Assembly (NCBI GenBank): GCA_963812045.1
Contig: CAWETF010000003.1
Span: forward strand, 348,881-412,880
Length of the DNA: 64,000 nucleotides
Source: an uncultured delta proteobacterium
Lineage (GTDB): Bacteria > Desulfobacterota > Syntrophia > Syntrophales > Smithellaceae
Direction: 5' to 3'
Both the position numbers and the translations under genes were made by a program. Shown here one piece after another: positions 19,750 to 24,330 of the stretch; the first letter of the stretch is position 1, and each line of letters begins with the position of its first letter. The notes below the pieces were generated by a model. It ran no database searches. It was not told the DNA's origin and saw only the letters and a program-made list of their open reading frames with translations.

Positions 19750-19852
19750 TTGTTTACCTTGATAAAATGCTGTTGGAAAGTAGCAAACTCTTCATTTTTT
19801 CACAAGATTATATTTGCTGTTGATCAAAATAAAAAATGTTTCTGGCTGTGGA

Positions 19853-19883
19853 AAAACACTTGTCAAATTAATTCTTGAAAAAG
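19853..19883 (+). repeat. 31-nt copy of the ruvX upstream region (left copy)
   Basis: aaaacacTtgtcaaattaattcttgaaaaag versus aaaacacCtgtcaaattaattcttgaaaaag at 23846-23876 (30/31). Confidence 0.9.
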
Positions 19884-20052
19884 AATCGTTTCTCGGCTTT
19901 ACTGGAAAAACCTTTTGCCTTCCGGTTGTTAAATGGCAGGAAACCCTTTCCACGAAGGAAGCGGAAGAAATACTGATAAATTCCGGTGTCCGTTGGGAAA
20001 AAAGAAAAAAATGGTGGATAAACTGACGGCCTGCCTGATTCCTCAAGGTTAT
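19884..20052 (+). pseudogene. ruvX 3'-end fragment (internally deleted, frameshifted copy)
   Basis: Aligns to ruvX 24137-24309. It encodes ...KTFCLPVVKWQETLSTKEAEEILINSGVRWEKRKK and then frameshifts in the poly-A run. It is joined to the promoter copy through the shared octamer tgaaaaag. Confidence 0.85.
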
Positions 20053-20053
20053 T

Positions 20054-20902
20054 ATGAAAAAAAGAGAAACATGCCAGATTTGCCTTCAAGAAACAGCAGA
20101 TCATTATCTTGATCTCCAAGGCATGATTTTGCATCGTTGCCGGCAATGTGGACTTGTTTTTAACGCCAGGCCGTTAAATCAAGATACATTAAATGAGATT
20201 TACGGCGAAAAATATTTTCAGAAAGGATATTTTAATAATTGTCATAAAGCCTATGCCTTTAGAGGACAAATTAAGAATTATAAAAAATATTTAAGAATTA
20301 TTAATGGTTTTTGTCCGGCGAAGGGCCGGTTGCTCGATGTTGGTTGCGGGAAAGGGGTTTTTCTTGATGTTGCCGCTAAAGACGGCTGGAAGGTTTCGGG
20401 ACAAGATATCTCTCCTATTGCGGCACGGCACGCCAAAGAACAGTTCTCTTTCCCGGTTTTTTCCGGCCATCTTAAAAGCGCTCCATTCTTAGCGGAATCG
20501 TTTGATGTTGTTACCATGTGGGATGTTATCGAGCATAGTGACAAGCCCCAAGAAATGCTTAATGACGTTTTGCATTTTTTAAAAAAGGACGGGCTATTAT
20601 TTATCTGGACATTAAATCAAGATTGTCTGATGACCTGGATTGCGTATCAATTTTACAAAATAAATATTAATTTTGCGGTGCGGGAAATTTATATTCCTGA
20701 ACACCGGTTTTATTTTAATCAAAAGACATTGGCGGCGATTCTTGAGAAAGCGAAGTTGAAGATTCTTTATAAAAATTTTGACGAATACCCGTTGGACCGG
20801 TATGGCGGAAAAGTTTTTATTAAAATAGGCCTTTCGGTTATTTTTCTATTTCATAAAATCTTCAACATTAAATCCGAACAAGTTTGGGTGTGCAAAAAAT
20901 GA
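20054..20902 (+). CDS. class I SAM-dependent methyltransferase with N-terminal Zn-ribbon
   Basis: 282 aa. CQIC...CRQC zinc ribbon, SAM motif I LLDVGCGKGVFL, post-I DIS, and WDVIEH. Confidence 0.75.
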   Translation: MKKRETCQICLQETADHYLDLQGMILHRCRQCGLVFNARPLNQDTLNEIYGEKYFQKGYFNNCHKAYAFRGQIKNYKKYLRIINGFCPAKGRLLDVGCGKGVFLDVAAKDGWKVSGQDISPIAARHAKEQFSFPVFSGHLKSAPFLAESFDVVTMWDVIEHSDKPQEMLNDVLHFLKKDGLLFIWTLNQDCLMTWIAYQFYKININFAVREIYIPEHRFYFNQKTLAAILEKAKLKILYKNFDEYPLDRYGGKVFIKIGLSVIFLFHKIFNIKSEQVWVCKK

Positions 20903-22008
20903 ATGGAATTCGACAATCACAACTGGGGCTAACTCTTAAATTGTTAAGTGAAGGGCGCATCAAATGGTTTTTTGATAATTTGATAAAGATGGCACTTATC
21001 AAACAGTCTTTTCATTTTAAAAAACCATTATGCGGCCCGCTTGTTGCCTCCGTGATCGTAACGTATAAATGTAATTTTCGATGCCCTTTTTGCGATGCGT
21101 ATAATAAGCCTGCTTTGTTGGAATTAGAAAATAAATATTTTGAGACGGAAGATTTTAAAAAAGGTTTGCAGCAATTAATTGATTTTAAGGTAGGGGTGAT
21201 TGGATTTACCGGAGGTGAGCCATTATTGCGCGAAGATATTTTTGAGTTAATTACTTTCGCCAAACAAAAAGGCCCGGTGGTGCATTTGAGCACCAATGGT
21301 TCTCTGTTAAGCGAGGATCGCGCCGAATTGCTTTTAAGAACGAAAATCGATGGAATCAATATTTCCTTGGATGGGGCCATCGCAGAAACAAATGATTTTA
21401 TCAGAGGAAAAGGTTCTTTTGAAAAAGTTACGGAAAATATCCGTACCCTTGTAGCGTCTCGAAAAAAACTCCGGTCAAAAACACAAATCGGTCTTTTTTG
21501 TGTCTTGACGCGAAAGAATCTCAATGAGACGCAGGCGTTGATATCATTGGCAAAAAAGTTGGGGGTCGACTCTGCTGGATTCATGCCGGTTCAGGATATT
21601 GTGTATAAACATAAAGATGATTATGGAAATCTGAAAAATGAATTATGCCCTGATGCGGAAAGCGAGATTGATCAGGCTGTTGATTTTTTAATTGAATATA
21701 AGAGAAAGTATGGTTTTATTGATGATTCGAAAAAGTATCTTGAATTGTTTAAATCGAGTCTGCGAGGGTATCCGCTTCCTTTGAATTGTTATATGGGGCA
21801 CGGATTTATCGTTTTAGATTGCTATGGAAATATTTTTCCTTGTTATCCTTTTGCGTTAAAAGGCGCCCATTGCGTTGGGAATATTTCAACAACACCGTTG
21901 CGACAGGTTTATCATTCCTCTGAATATGCAAAGGTGAGAGATATGGTGAAAAATTGCCATAGTTGTTACTGGAATTGCACGACGGAATTAAATGTATTAT
22001 TGAATTAA
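20899..22008 (+). CDS. radical SAM protein with C-terminal SPASM/twitch-like Cys cluster
   Basis: ATGA overlap with the methyltransferase stop (start at ATG 20899; the track gives 20884). CNFRCPFCDA is the CxxxCxxC motif, with GGEPLL. C-terminal cysteines: CYGNIFPCYPF...CVGN...NCHSCYWNC. Confidence 0.75.
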   Translation: MNGIRQSQLGLTLKLLSEGRIKWFFDNLIKMALIKQSFHFKKPLCGPLVASVIVTYKCNFRCPFCDAYNKPALLELENKYFETEDFKKGLQQLIDFKVGVIGFTGGEPLLREDIFELITFAKQKGPVVHLSTNGSLLSEDRAELLLRTKIDGINISLDGAIAETNDFIRGKGSFEKVTENIRTLVASRKKLRSKTQIGLFCVLTRKNLNETQALISLAKKLGVDSAGFMPVQDIVYKHKDDYGNLKNELCPDAESEIDQAVDFLIEYKRKYGFIDDSKKYLELFKSSLRGYPLPLNCYMGHGFIVLDCYGNIFPCYPFALKGAHCVGNISTTPLRQVYHSSEYAKVRDMVKNCHSCYWNCTTELNVLLN

Positions 22009-22030
22009 TTAACAGCTATCCCCTATTATC

Positions 22031-23437
22031 TCATAGGCCAAACATCTCAGAAAAATCAATCCATCTAACCTTAAAAAAATAATTATAGCCCCTATGTAGA
22101 TTCCAGATTAATGAAAATATCTTATTCAAATCGTATTGAATCAATCTTTTGACAATAGGTCTTAAGAATGGAAAATCTACGACAAGAGGAAACAAATGAT
22201 GTAAACGGATTATCTTGTCTATGTCCTTGATCTTCATTGGGGATTGATAGTAATAATCTCCTTTTAATGAATTAACATCACCGTCATAATATCCTTTTTT
22301 AATAGAATATTCGCTAAGGTCTGTCCTTGGATATGGCTGGAAAATCGAAACCCATGAATAACTTGGTTTACATTTAATATTCAGGTCGATTGTCTCCCAA
22401 ACAGAATCAAGAGTCTCATCAGGAAGGCCTACCATATTTTGAGTGAAGATATGAAGACCATATTTATGGCATAATTTCGCGATCTGAAGTATCTGGTTCC
22501 GGGAGATATTTCTCTTTAATATTTTGTTCCTTATAACTTCATCTCCGCTTTCAATCGCAAAAACGATGGTTATACAACCAGCTTCCTTAAGGGACCTGAT
22601 TATCTCTTCGTCGATTATATTTACCCTGATATTACAGATAAAAGGAAGTTTGATCTTTTCCTTGTACTCATGGCAAAAATCAATGGTCCATTCCTTATTA
22701 AGGATAAAAGTGTCATCAACAAAATGAAATCTTCGCGGATGAAATTTATTTTTTGTTTGAACCAATTCATTGATGACATTTGGCACAGTTCGTTTACGAA
22801 TAATATTCCCCTTCCCTTGATATAATTTATTATAACTGTGATTAAAACAGTAAGTGCAATTATAAGGACAACCTCTTCCCGTAATAATATGCCTCCTGTG
22901 AAAATTTCTGTATTGTTTGTAGCGATTAATCAGTTCACGATCAGGATAAGGGATTTCATCCAGATTACATATCAAATCCCTTAAAGGGTTCTTATAGATT
23001 TTACCGTTAATCTTCACATCAATATTTTGAATATGTTTTATATCTTTCTTTTTTTCAAGATTCTCTAACAATTCTGCAGTAGCATATTCACCTTCTCCCT
23101 TACAAATAGCATCGACGCCTTCTTCTTCTATGAATTCGGGGAAAAAAGTACAATGGGGTCCGCCGAAAATTGAAAAAAACTTTAATCTTTTCTTAAGGTT
23201 CAGATTAAGTTTTTGATAAAAAGTATGCATTCCAGTTGTTACGGAGTATGCAATAATATCCGGTCCAATCTCTTGAATCTCTTGAAGATAATTTTTTGAA
23301 AGTCGCAGATCTATAAAATAGACTTGATGCCCTTTTTTCTTAAGAAAAGCAGAAATTGTCATCAAGCCTAGCGGCTCAACATATTCATACTTGTAAATAA
23401 ATAAAACTTTCATGTTCTCACGAAGCGATGAATGCAT
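22031..23437 (-). CDS. B12-binding-domain radical SAM protein
   Basis: 468 aa. N-terminal cobalamin-binding-like domain (KVLFIYKYEYVEPLGLMTISAFLKKKGHQVYFIDL), radical SAM motif GRGCPYNCTYCF. Very AT-rich. An alternative start is the ATG at 23413 (MKVLFIY). Confidence 0.75.
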   Translation of the reverse strand: MHSSLRENMKVLFIYKYEYVEPLGLMTISAFLKKKGHQVYFIDLRLSKNYLQEIQEIGPDIIAYSVTTGMHTFYQKLNLNLKKRLKFFSIFGGPHCTFFPEFIEEEGVDAICKGEGEYATAELLENLEKKKDIKHIQNIDVKINGKIYKNPLRDLICNLDEIPYPDRELINRYKQYRNFHRRHIITGRGCPYNCTYCFNHSYNKLYQGKGNIIRKRTVPNVINELVQTKNKFHPRRFHFVDDTFILNKEWTIDFCHEYKEKIKLPFICNIRVNIIDEEIIRSLKEAGCITIVFAIESGDEVIRNKILKRNISRNQILQIAKLCHKYGLHIFTQNMVGLPDETLDSVWETIDLNIKCKPSYSWVSIFQPYPRTDLSEYSIKKGYYDGDVNSLKGDYYYQSPMKIKDIDKIIRLHHLFPLVVDFPFLRPIVKRLIQYDLNKIFSLIWNLHRGYNYFFKVRWIDFSEMFGL

Positions 23438-23447
23438 GACATAAAAC

Positions 23448-23852
23448 TTATGTCAATACAATTTTGAGAACATCCAGGCAGAGCCACTCTCCGAATTCCA
23501 CCACGCGCTTCTGATGGCAGGACGGACAGAAGTGGCGTCTTTTGCAAGAGAAGGCCAGCAGATATTCATGGCCGCACTCTTTGCATCTCACACGGGCAAA
23601 GCCGTGGCTCCGATCGCCGCAATCGAGAAAGCGGTCGATCACTTTTTCGGCATAAGGCCGCCAGAAGCCATACCGCATAAGGATCGACGCAGTGGTAATA
23701 ATCCGTATCTTGTGATCGACGTGGCAGGTATTCGGCTGCGGACACTGAAATATCTTTCTCGCTTCATAGGATGGATAACTCCATCCCGAAGCGAGAAAAT
23801 TTAGTCGGACGAGCGTTCTATTGTCAAGATCAATAAACATCGGGCAAAACAC
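23448..23852 (-). mobile_element. truncated IS91-family (Y2 rolling-circle) transposase remnant, N-terminal Zn-binding domain only
   Basis: GFARVRCKECGHEYLLAFSCKRRHFCPSCHQKRVVEFGEWL matches the IS91 transposase zinc-binding domain. The ORF stops after 134 aa, 11 nt before the B12-rSAM gene. No catalytic Y2 domain is present. Confidence 0.7.
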
Positions 23853-23876
23853 CTGTCAAATTAATTCTTGAAAAAG
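23846..23876 (+). repeat. 31-nt ruvX upstream region (right, functional copy)
   Basis: Direct repeat of 19853-19883. Confidence 0.9.
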
Positions 23877-23880
23877 GCAG

Positions 23881-24330
23881 GTGGAATTGTTAGAAAGCGC
23901 GGCAAAGGAGTGCTTCTTGCGCATACTTGGTTTGGATTATGGTGAAAGAAGAATAGGAGTGGCTATTTGCGACGAACTGGGTCTTACGGCTCAGGGTTTG
24001 CCTACGATAATAAGAAAAAATAAGAAACATGATTGGAAAATTCTGGGAGATCTGATCGCAAATTACAAAGTAGACAAAATTATAATAGGTTATCCTGTAA
24101 GACTGGACGGTTCCGAGGGCATACAGTGTGAAAAAGTAAATCGTTTCTCGGCCTTACTGGAAAAAACATTTTGCCTTCCTGTTGTTAAATGGCAGGAAAC
24201 CCTTTCCACGAAGGAAGCGGAAGAAATACTTATAAATTCCGGTGTCCGTTGGGAAAAAAGAAAAAAAATGGTGGATAAACTGGCGGCCTGCCTGATCCTT
24301 CAAGGTTATCTGGATTCTATCGTAAAATAA
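23881..24330 (+). CDS. ruvX: Holliday-junction resolvase-like nuclease RuvX (YqgF)
   Basis: ILGLDYGERRIGVAICD is the YqgF N-terminal motif. The true start may be the in-frame TTG at 23917 (LRILGLDYG). Confidence 0.85.
   Translation: MELLESAAKECFLRILGLDYGERRIGVAICDELGLTAQGLPTIIRKNKKHDWKILGDLIANYKVDKIIIGYPVRLDGSEGIQCEKVNRFSALLEKTFCLPVVKWQETLSTKEAEEILINSGVRWEKRKKMVDKLAACLILQGYLDSIVK

Follow-up and report, generated by a model that had tools for sequence, protein, structure and literature searches.

What do three tailoring enzymes act on when no gene for their substrate lies beside them? This question is raised by a stretch of 64,000 nt (hereafter the window; positions 348,881 to 412,880 of contig CAWETF010000003.1, assembly GCA_963812045.1) from an uncultured delta proteobacterium of the family Smithellaceae, in which the genes for a class I S-adenosylmethionine (SAM)-dependent methyltransferase, a radical SAM enzyme with a SPASM/twitch domain and a radical SAM enzyme with a B12-binding domain stand together as an insertion, with selB on one side and ruvX on the other. 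A first-pass annotation of the window had described the trio as a mobile, perhaps self-contained module with no substrate gene in sight, and had named a membrane lipid or a cell-envelope component as its possible target. We consider it fairly probable (roughly 0.6) that the trio is a horizontally acquired cassette for tailoring glycans or nucleotide sugars which acts in trans, and which would have become detached from the kind of glycan cluster that normally houses its relatives.

The enzyme assignments of the first-pass annotation were borne out for all three genes by Pfam matches and by invariant Cys residues. The methyltransferase gene (20054..20902, plus strand) encodes a protein of 282 aa with an N-terminal four-Cys Zn-ribbon and a Methyltransf_23 match (E 6.5e-24). 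In an alignment with ten relatives, residues C7, C10, C29 and C32 and the SAM-binding motif LLDVGCG are invariant, which justifies the name "Zn-ribbon class I methyltransferase" given to it at the outset. The protein shares the four-Cys N-terminus and the class I fold with the nucleoside diphosphate (NDP)-hexose C-methyltransferases of the TylCIII/TcaB9 type, but it does not belong to that type: no match to Methyltransf_13 or Methyltransf_14 was obtained at E up to 0.01, and the protein is just 282 aa long. Its score reached the cut-off of no NCBIfam model.

The SPASM gene (20899..22008, plus strand) encodes a radical SAM enzyme of 369 aa. Its ATG start codon at 20899 overlaps the TGA stop codon of the methyltransferase gene as ATGA (20899-20902), so that the translational coupling read from the sequence at the outset holds; this start agrees with the 369-aa database gene model and with the N-termini of the homologues. 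The radical SAM core (PF04055, E 2.3e-24) carries the motif C55-x3-C59-x2-C62, and the C-terminal Cys-rich auxiliary-cluster domain is matched by SPASM (PF13186) at 33.5 bits, with a cut-off of 21.5, over residues 294-354; the protein is thus a member of the SPASM/twitch superfamily. It has seven C-terminal Cys residues, of which just C294, C312, C350 and C353, spaced Cx17C...CxxC, are invariant in the family alignment together with C55, C59 and C62; six members lack both C305 and C357, and C322 is found in this protein alone. The enzyme likely carries at least one auxiliary cluster, as judged from this pattern. Twitch domains hold one auxiliary cluster, and in BtrN four Cys residues bind it (PMC9012708).

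The AlphaFold model of the SPASM enzyme has a mean confidence (predicted local distance difference test, pLDDT) of 89.5, and its top match in the PDB, both by sequence (E 1.3e-11) and by fold (E 1.5e-16, TM 0.63-0.70), is the cytosylglucuronate decarboxylase BlsE (PDB 7vob). Further sequence and fold matches are DesII, viperin, MoaA and BtrN, all of which act on sugars or nucleotide-linked substrates. The TDP-sugar radical SAM enzyme DesII (PDB 8hzv) is among the next best fold matches, behind the peptide enzyme SuiB; like BlsE, it acts on a nucleotide- or nucleoside-linked sugar. The likeness to BlsE is distant, for the identity is 22%, and the SPASM family has its own Cys pattern and a conserved N-terminal extension of 45 residues, modelled as two helices only.

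The third gene (22031..23413, minus strand) is convergent to the other two and encodes a class B (B12-binding domain) radical SAM enzyme of 460 aa. While the enzyme had been recognised correctly, its start had been placed at 23437; the start is probably 23413, because the homologues and the 460-aa database gene model begin with MKVLFIYKYEY. The B12-binding domain (PF02310) was matched at 66.6 bits (cut-off 32.1) over residues 17-123 and Radical_SAM (PF04055) at E 3.8e-24, with the motif GRGCPYNCTYCF present, and C182, C186 and C189 are invariant across 30 sequences 47-68% identical to the query. A Rossmann-type B12-binding domain and a CxxxCxxC motif in a TIM-barrel core place the protein among the class B radical SAM enzymes. 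Its model (pLDDT 92.9) has a fold like those of MgmA, AprD4, TsrM, CysS, OxsB and TokK, the fold matches to MgmA, TsrM, OxsB, TokK and CysS ranging from E 1e-16 to 1e-23.

By sequence, the closest solved structure to the B12 enzyme is AprD4 (E 6.5e-22), a radical SAM diol dehydratase acting on the aminoglycoside paromamine. AprD4 has a B12-binding domain, yet it is described as a cobalamin-independent dehydratase. Cobalamin binding by the enzyme of the trio is predicted from its domain, and its reaction may or may not depend on the cofactor. As with the methyltransferase, no NCBIfam model was matched at its cut-off: the B12 enzyme scored 143.4 against HpnJ (TIGR03471, cut-off 577.6), 113 against BchE (TIGR02026, cut-off 481) and 93.2 against AprD4 (NF033070, cut-off 500), and is a member of none of these families. 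None of the three enzymes thus belongs to a characterised subfamily.

The neighbourhoods of the closest homologues of the three proteins were then compared in nine independent informative loci. All of these are glycan clusters: glycosyltransferases are present in 9/9, and most also contain nucleotide-sugar enzymes, Wzy or PMT_2. The B12 orthologues in these loci are 56-68% identical to the query. At L001 (67%) the orthologue is accompanied by genes for family 4 glycosyltransferases (GT4), a fusion of a family 2 glycosyltransferase (GT2) with a methyltransferase, PMT_2 and epimerases, with MBOAT and ALGX directly downstream. L002 (58%) contains DegT, epimerases, NeuB, CTP_transf_3, PIG-L, WbqC, a carbamoyltransferase and PMT_2, besides two further B12 radical SAM enzymes and a radical SAM/SPASM enzyme, and at L100 (56%) the B12 gene shares 4 nt with an overlapping GT2 gene, in a locus that holds a further four B12 radical SAM genes, methyltransferases, YdjC, GT4 and DegT.

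The SPASM homologues, 35-44% identical, lie in similar surroundings. L003 (39%) has GT2, GFO/Hexapep/DegT, GT4, PMT_2, a B12 radical SAM gene, a methyltransferase and epimerases of the short-chain dehydrogenase/reductase (SDR) type; at L005 (41%) the order is GT2, SPASM, epimerase, DUF2079 and B12 radical SAM gene. At L096 and L098 (35-36%) the order is family 9 glycosyltransferase (GT9), radical SAM gene and SPASM, with methyltransferases upstream of the GT9 gene at L096 and a B12 radical SAM gene 2 kb downstream of SPASM at L098. L139, whose SPASM homologue is a member of a 44% cluster, has the order SPASM, GT2, DUF2304 and adjoins bamA and lpxD/A/I. Methyltransferase homologues are found at L004 (36%) with GT4, Wzy_C and Phosphodiest, and at L104 (33%) in the order NTP_transferase, methyltransferase and two GT4 genes, together with an epimerase, SDR and GFO.

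The three enzyme types are co-located at L003, L100, L005 and L098. The idea that the trio should recur elsewhere therefore stands for the enzyme types but not for one orthologous trio, since the co-located partners are just 27-31% identical (tblastn). From these comparisons the three enzymes appear to be interchangeable, mix-and-match tailoring modules rather than a conserved orthologous trio. Nor can the module well be called self-contained: since the homologue loci are all glycan clusters with glycosyltransferases, the genes that build the substrate are expected to lie outside the island.

The same neighbourhoods bear on the possibility that the trio is a proteusin-like or other protein-modifying set for a ribosomally synthesised and post-translationally modified peptide (RiPP), with the precursor encoded elsewhere. 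The same three enzyme classes do occur together in the proteusin (polytheonamide) pathway, as the epimerase PoyD, the class B radical SAM enzymes PoyB/C and the N-methyltransferase PoyE. PoyB is listed in PMC9204698, and SPASM enzymes are known mostly from RiPP pathways (PMC9012708). The SPASM enzyme also matches SuiB, CteB, SkfB and anSME in fold, and other cargo at the selB-ruvX site in a sister genome (G016) has a RiPP-like look, its genes including NTP_transf_5, radical SAM/SPASM enzymes and an ABC transporter. RiPP genes (precursor peptide, PqqD domain, peptidase, RiPP exporter), however, were found in 0/9 of the homologue neighbourhoods, which are glycan clusters. Within the island, the only non-coding gaps are 22009-22030 (22 nt) and 23414-23447 (about 34 nt), so that no precursor gene fits, and neither the list of open reading frames (ORFs) nor the Pfam search gave a transporter, a peptidase or a PqqD domain, in agreement with what had been noticed at first sight. 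The SPASM enzyme has no RiPP recognition element (RRE) of the PqqD type, as there is no PF05402 match and its N-terminal 45 residues form just two helices. It does not belong to the RiPP-maturing radical SAM/SPASM enzymes (sactisynthases, PqqE, MftC and the like), the best model being that of the mycofactocin maturase (114.8, cut-off 265; PqqE, 89, cut-off 381), and it too reached no NCBIfam cut-off. RiPP maturase models gave 57-105 bits with cut-offs of 280-850, and RiPP C-methyltransferase models 59-105 bits with cut-offs of 282-750. No Nif11-type precursor was found in the genome, and no NHLP/Nif11 precursor of the proteusin kind. In view of the missing RRE domain, precursor, peptidase and Nif11 genes we rejected this explanation, to which we give the lowest probability of those weighed here.

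A membrane lipid or glycolipid target, with hopanoid-, ladderane- or tetraether-like chemistry or a modification of lipid A, deserves separate consideration. In NCBIfam, the B12 enzyme gives its best partial matches to HpnJ (143 bits) and to a ladderane-associated lipid B12 radical SAM enzyme (107 bits), the SPASM core weakly matches GDGT-MAS, the SPASM homologue at L139 adjoins lpxD/A/I and bamA, and the genome itself has clusters with PMT_2-like membrane proteins. But the two scores are far under their cut-offs (143 vs 577.6 and 107 vs 360), no lipid-synthesis genes were found next to any homologue, the neighbours being glycosyltransferases and nucleotide-sugar enzymes, and HpnJ itself acts on a glucosamine sugar moiety (PMC9204698). 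We regard a lipid target as improbable. Of the two targets named in the first-pass annotation, a cell-envelope component thus fits the evidence, whereas a membrane lipid does not fit it well.

Another possibility is that the trio makes an antiviral nucleotide or a small-molecule natural product. The SPASM enzyme would act in the manner of a viperin, BlsE or MoaA on a free nucleotide or nucleoside, and methylation of its product would follow. The best matches by sequence and by fold include BlsE, viperins and MoaA, the PADLOC models of prokaryotic viperins (pVip) match the radical SAM core at 79 bits, and the island is mobile and confined to one species of the genus. The PADLOC match, however, is limited to residues 52-211, that is, to the generic radical SAM core, while the NCBIfam prokaryotic viperin model (NF038283) gave 69.4 with a cut-off of 180, which places the protein outside that family; and the homologues reside in glycan clusters, not in defence islands. 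Viperins are also not known to have a Cys-rich auxiliary-cluster domain, which we counted against a viperin. A role in defence was rejected because the matches are below threshold and confined to the radical SAM core, and we hold the nucleotide or natural-product explanation as a whole to be very unlikely.

A tailoring cassette for sugars must also be squared with the way in which the three genes came to lie where they are. The island is a 3,993-bp insertion, as given by the spacing of two 34-bp direct repeats (94% identity). The right repeat (23843..23876, plus strand) is the native sequence 5' of ruvX, and the left one (19850..19883, plus strand) is a copy of the sequence just 5' of ruvX, which may be a source of a promoter for the methyltransferase and SPASM genes; a scan for promoters and terminators gave counts equal to the shuffled expectation, and a search for RNA runs turned up none. 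The left repeat is followed by a degenerate copy of ruvX (19884..20052, plus strand) that comprises its 3' part and lacks the first ~260 nt of the gene; this copy ends 1 nt before the methyltransferase start codon. This remnant is 90-97% identical to 24139-24309, it matches the Pfam RuvX model at positions 82-117, and by tblastn it is 88% identical to RuvX residues 89-129. The intact resident ruvX (23881..24330, plus strand; Pfam RuvX E 2.1e-44 over the full model) forms the right flank, and its product is 79-88% identical to the RuvX proteins at the same position in sister genomes. The G+C content is 0.33-0.40 in the island and 0.36-0.49 in the flanks.

At the right end of the island, a remnant of an IS91/ISCR-type transposase gene (23448..23852, minus strand; 134 aa) adjoins the B12 gene. 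The N-terminal Zn-binding domain is kept (Zn_Tnp_IS91, E 1.5e-16) and the catalytic domain is gone. The NCBIfam models of IS91 and ISCR match partially (NF033538, 39 with a cut-off of 125), and since a full member would have both a Zn-binding N-terminus and a Y2 HUH catalytic domain, this 134-aa ORF with Zn_Tnp_IS91 alone is not one; the element is a remnant and not active. It is the sole copy in its genome, in which no intact IS91 was seen, and truncated copies with 79-86% protein identity occur in related genomes. The Zn-finger fragment (23462-23676 in the window) recurs in several of these, with three copies in G002; at least one of them, on contig C17 of G002, is also truncated, being a 151-aa ORF fused to an unrelated N-terminal sequence, and another lies on contig C161 of G007.

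The site is empty in at least 14 congeneric genomes, in which the end of selB abuts ruvX or sits within about 180 bp of it, and the trio is absent from these genomes. In alignments with such relatives, the selB side stops at the left repeat and the ruvX side resumes at ~23858. These empty sites and the IS91 Zn-finger remnant agree with the first impression of a mobile trio, and the genes that flank it, SelB, RuvX, YceG/MltG, MraZ and RsmH, include the core DNA-repair and cell-wall genes beside which it had been said to lie. In one peat metagenome (window 19815-23858), island pieces were found together with contigs that join about 19815/19827 straight to 23858; the occupied and the vacant site, or close relatives with one or the other, are thus present side by side in a single sample.

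Six metagenome runs from peat, wetland and freshwater sediment, each under its own study code, contain island pieces 95-100% identical to the window (Logan contigs). The pieces span the junctions of the ruvX remnant with the methyltransferase gene (19845-20126), of the methyltransferase with the SPASM gene (20789-20934), of the SPASM with the B12 gene (21973-22123) and of the B12 gene with the IS91 remnant (23211-23528). An assembly chimera was ruled out, since every internal junction is present in separate metagenomes. Over about 1.6 kb of coding sequence, strains differ by 13 synonymous and 9 non-synonymous changes on about 323 synonymous and 1,292 non-synonymous sites, which gives a ratio of non-synonymous to synonymous polymorphism (pN/pS) of 0.17 (binomial p 6.6e-5). 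This low ratio argues against gene decay, and we conclude from it that the genes are maintained. All three ORFs are also full length relative to their homologues, with 98-100% coverage.

These results bear on the explanation that the three genes are unrelated hitch-hikers, carried off from a larger glycan cluster by one-ended transposition of the IS91 type or by recombination, with no joint function or with no function at all. The truncated IS91 remnant abutting the B12 gene would fit such a history, as would the convergent orientation of that gene, the unequal identities of the three proteins to their closest relatives (68% for the B12 protein and 42-45% for the other two), the lack of a conserved orthologous trio elsewhere and the absence of a partner glycosyltransferase from the island. 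Against it, all three ORFs are full length and pN/pS is about 0.17 across strains, the methyltransferase and SPASM genes are translationally coupled, and the gene order and the junctions persist in six metagenome runs. We therefore think it unlikely that the three genes are mere hitch-hikers, although we rate this above the other alternatives.

As for the origin of the genes, many relatives are 50-68% identical to the B12 protein, and those with a name come from Elusimicrobia, Omnitrophota and unclassified bacteria. The best paralogue of the B12 protein in its own genome, among ~40 B12 radical SAM genes, is 40% identical, and in 400 genomes of the same phylum the best matches were 37-43% identical, which is the level of paralogues. 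This supports acquisition of the B12 gene from outside the sampled phylum. For the SPASM protein and the methyltransferase, the closest relatives reach at most 45% and at most 42% identity, respectively. A profile scan of genome contigs with the SPASM family alignment gave generic radical SAM motifs, the matches listed being just 24-37% identical and no orthologue contexts appearing; in a scan of metagenome contigs with the SPASM protein, nothing closer than 34% and no donor locus were found. Because of these identities to own-genome, same-phylum and outside relatives, we take the cassette to be horizontally acquired and its genes to differ in history. The 40% B12 paralogue (C5:540287-541705) stands alone between a DnaJ/CbpA-like gene and a gene for a 977-aa protein, with no glycan genes nearby.

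If the trio is a tailoring cassette for sugars, its enzymes must act in trans on a precursor or glycan supplied by other loci, because the island has no glycosyltransferase, sugar-nucleotide enzyme or exporter. The twitch/SPASM enzyme would abstract a hydrogen atom from a sugar, probably nucleotide-linked or polyprenyl-linked, and oxidation, epimerisation, deoxygenation or decarboxylation could follow. The class B enzyme would most likely carry out a methylcobalamin-dependent methylation of an unactivated sugar carbon, or, less likely, a cobalamin-independent rearrangement or dehydration, and the Zn-ribbon methyltransferase would methylate an O or N atom. The domain architectures, the intactness of the genes, the purifying selection on them, the insertion with its empty site and the glycan setting of the homologues are observed; from these we infer the class of substrate, the single reactions and a target molecule common to the three enzymes. 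Sugars are known substrates of characterised class B radical SAM enzymes, among them GenK, GenD1, Fms7, MoeK5 and HpnJ (PMC9204698).

Substrates for these reactions could be supplied by the radical-SAM-rich clusters resident in the same genome, which at 3.4 Mb contains ~40 B12-binding radical SAM paralogues. There are at least three such clusters, with groups of 5-8 B12 radical SAM genes at C1:678-690 kb, C1:1131-1148 kb and C3:276-283 kb. In the second, a gene for a 707-aa GT2-radical SAM-SPASM fusion (C1:1137074-1139197, minus strand) sits among eight B12 radical SAM genes together with a GDSL esterase gene. A fusion of this kind is also encoded in sister genome G006, and the fusions link the SPASM enzyme class physically to glycosyl transfer. 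The cluster at C1:676-692 kb contains genes for PMT_2-like and TPR membrane proteins, a hexapeptide acyltransferase and a SPASM paralogue of 32% identity, and the one at C3:272-287 kb contains SDR epimerases. Two near-identical B12 radical SAM genes of ~475 aa, which differ at their ends only, lie at C1:684270-685697 and C1:688009-689427 and flank a gene for a 368-aa SPASM paralogue (C1:686000-687106); a recent local duplication is thereby indicated.

Among known systems, the nearest combination of these enzyme classes acting together on sugars is found in aminoglycoside tailoring, by GenK/GenD1 with GenN in gentamicin, AprD4 in apramycin and BtrN in butirosin biosynthesis. GenK and GenD1 are class B radical SAM C-methylases and GenN is a class I N-methyltransferase, while the twitch domain of BtrN matches the C-terminus of the SPASM enzyme with a similar spacing of the four invariant Cys residues. 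The reaction scope of these enzymes is given here after PMC9204698 and PMC9012708. The identities to them are just 14-22%, however, the family models score far under their cut-offs, and the aminoglycoside enzymes belong to antibiotic clusters, whereas relatives of the trio lie in cell-surface glycan clusters without aminocyclitol genes. Also comparable are the radical-SAM-rich surface-glycan clusters of uncultured anaerobes, annotated and biochemically uncharacterised, in which homologues of all three genes reside; the island differs from these in consisting of three tailoring genes alone, with no glycosyltransferase, sugar-nucleotide or export genes, and in lying beside housekeeping genes.

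In its proposed mode of action the cassette would also resemble the serotype-converting gtrABC and oac O-antigen cassettes, which are borne by phages or islands and are small acquired sets that modify the glycan of a resident cluster in trans. These cassettes use glucosylation or acetylation instead of radical SAM chemistry, and they include a dedicated membrane transferase. As the island contains no phage or integrase gene, the analogy is functional only.

Several points weigh against a glycan or nucleotide-sugar tailoring cassette and were taken into account in the probability given above. None of the three proteins has a characterised homologue or reaches an NCBIfam cut-off, and the proposed substrate is assigned by association. 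The orthologous trio stands together nowhere else. In the fold search, the peptide-modifying SuiB, CteB, anSME and SkfB score similarly to the sugar and nucleotide enzymes. With no glycosyltransferase in the island, incorporation of a newly modified sugar is hard to picture unless the modification takes place after assembly. Finally, the pN/pS ratio is based on a small sample of 22 differences, most of them within the B12 gene, from contigs of low depth.

The selB-ruvX site itself is an insertion hotspot, because two sister genomes carry other cargo there. In G006 (C6:468500-482000) this is a glycan-type cargo of 11.5 kb with GT2, RgpF, DUF2142, the GT2-radical SAM-SPASM fusion of 1265 aa, a cupin and two more radical SAM enzymes; in G016 (C9:264000-275200) it is the RiPP-like cargo referred to above, of ~9 kb, in which there are three radical SAM enzymes in all. 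A more speculative proposal we put forward tentatively and well below even odds: that the island is a minimal radical-SAM glycan-conversion cassette, in which three enzymes from a distant phylum would place a C-methylated or otherwise radical-modified and further O- or N-methylated sugar on a resident surface glycan, and that the selB-ruvX site would be a genus-wide swap point for alternative radical-SAM glycan cargos. The presence of GT2, RgpF, DUF2142 and the fusion at this site in G006 supports such a swap point.

The surface-polysaccharide clusters of uncultured anaerobes are rich in radical SAM enzymes, and no biochemically characterised member of the present subfamilies was found in the model libraries, the PDB or the literature searched; the literature on such enzymes in O-antigen, capsule or polysaccharide clusters likewise yielded no characterised example. 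The island is thus a further example of a recurring uncharacterised theme and not a new system. It stands out in that it is reduced to three genes, lies apart from any glycan cluster and occupies a genus-wide insertion hotspot. With three intact genes under selection in 3.4 kb, the island is an unusually small test case, and genomes with and without it provide a natural comparison. If the enzymes do act in trans on an existing glycan, this would be a conversion of surface type by radical chemistry, and such a conversion cassette would alter the cell surface, and possibly its recognition by phages or grazers, without a new glycosyltransferase.

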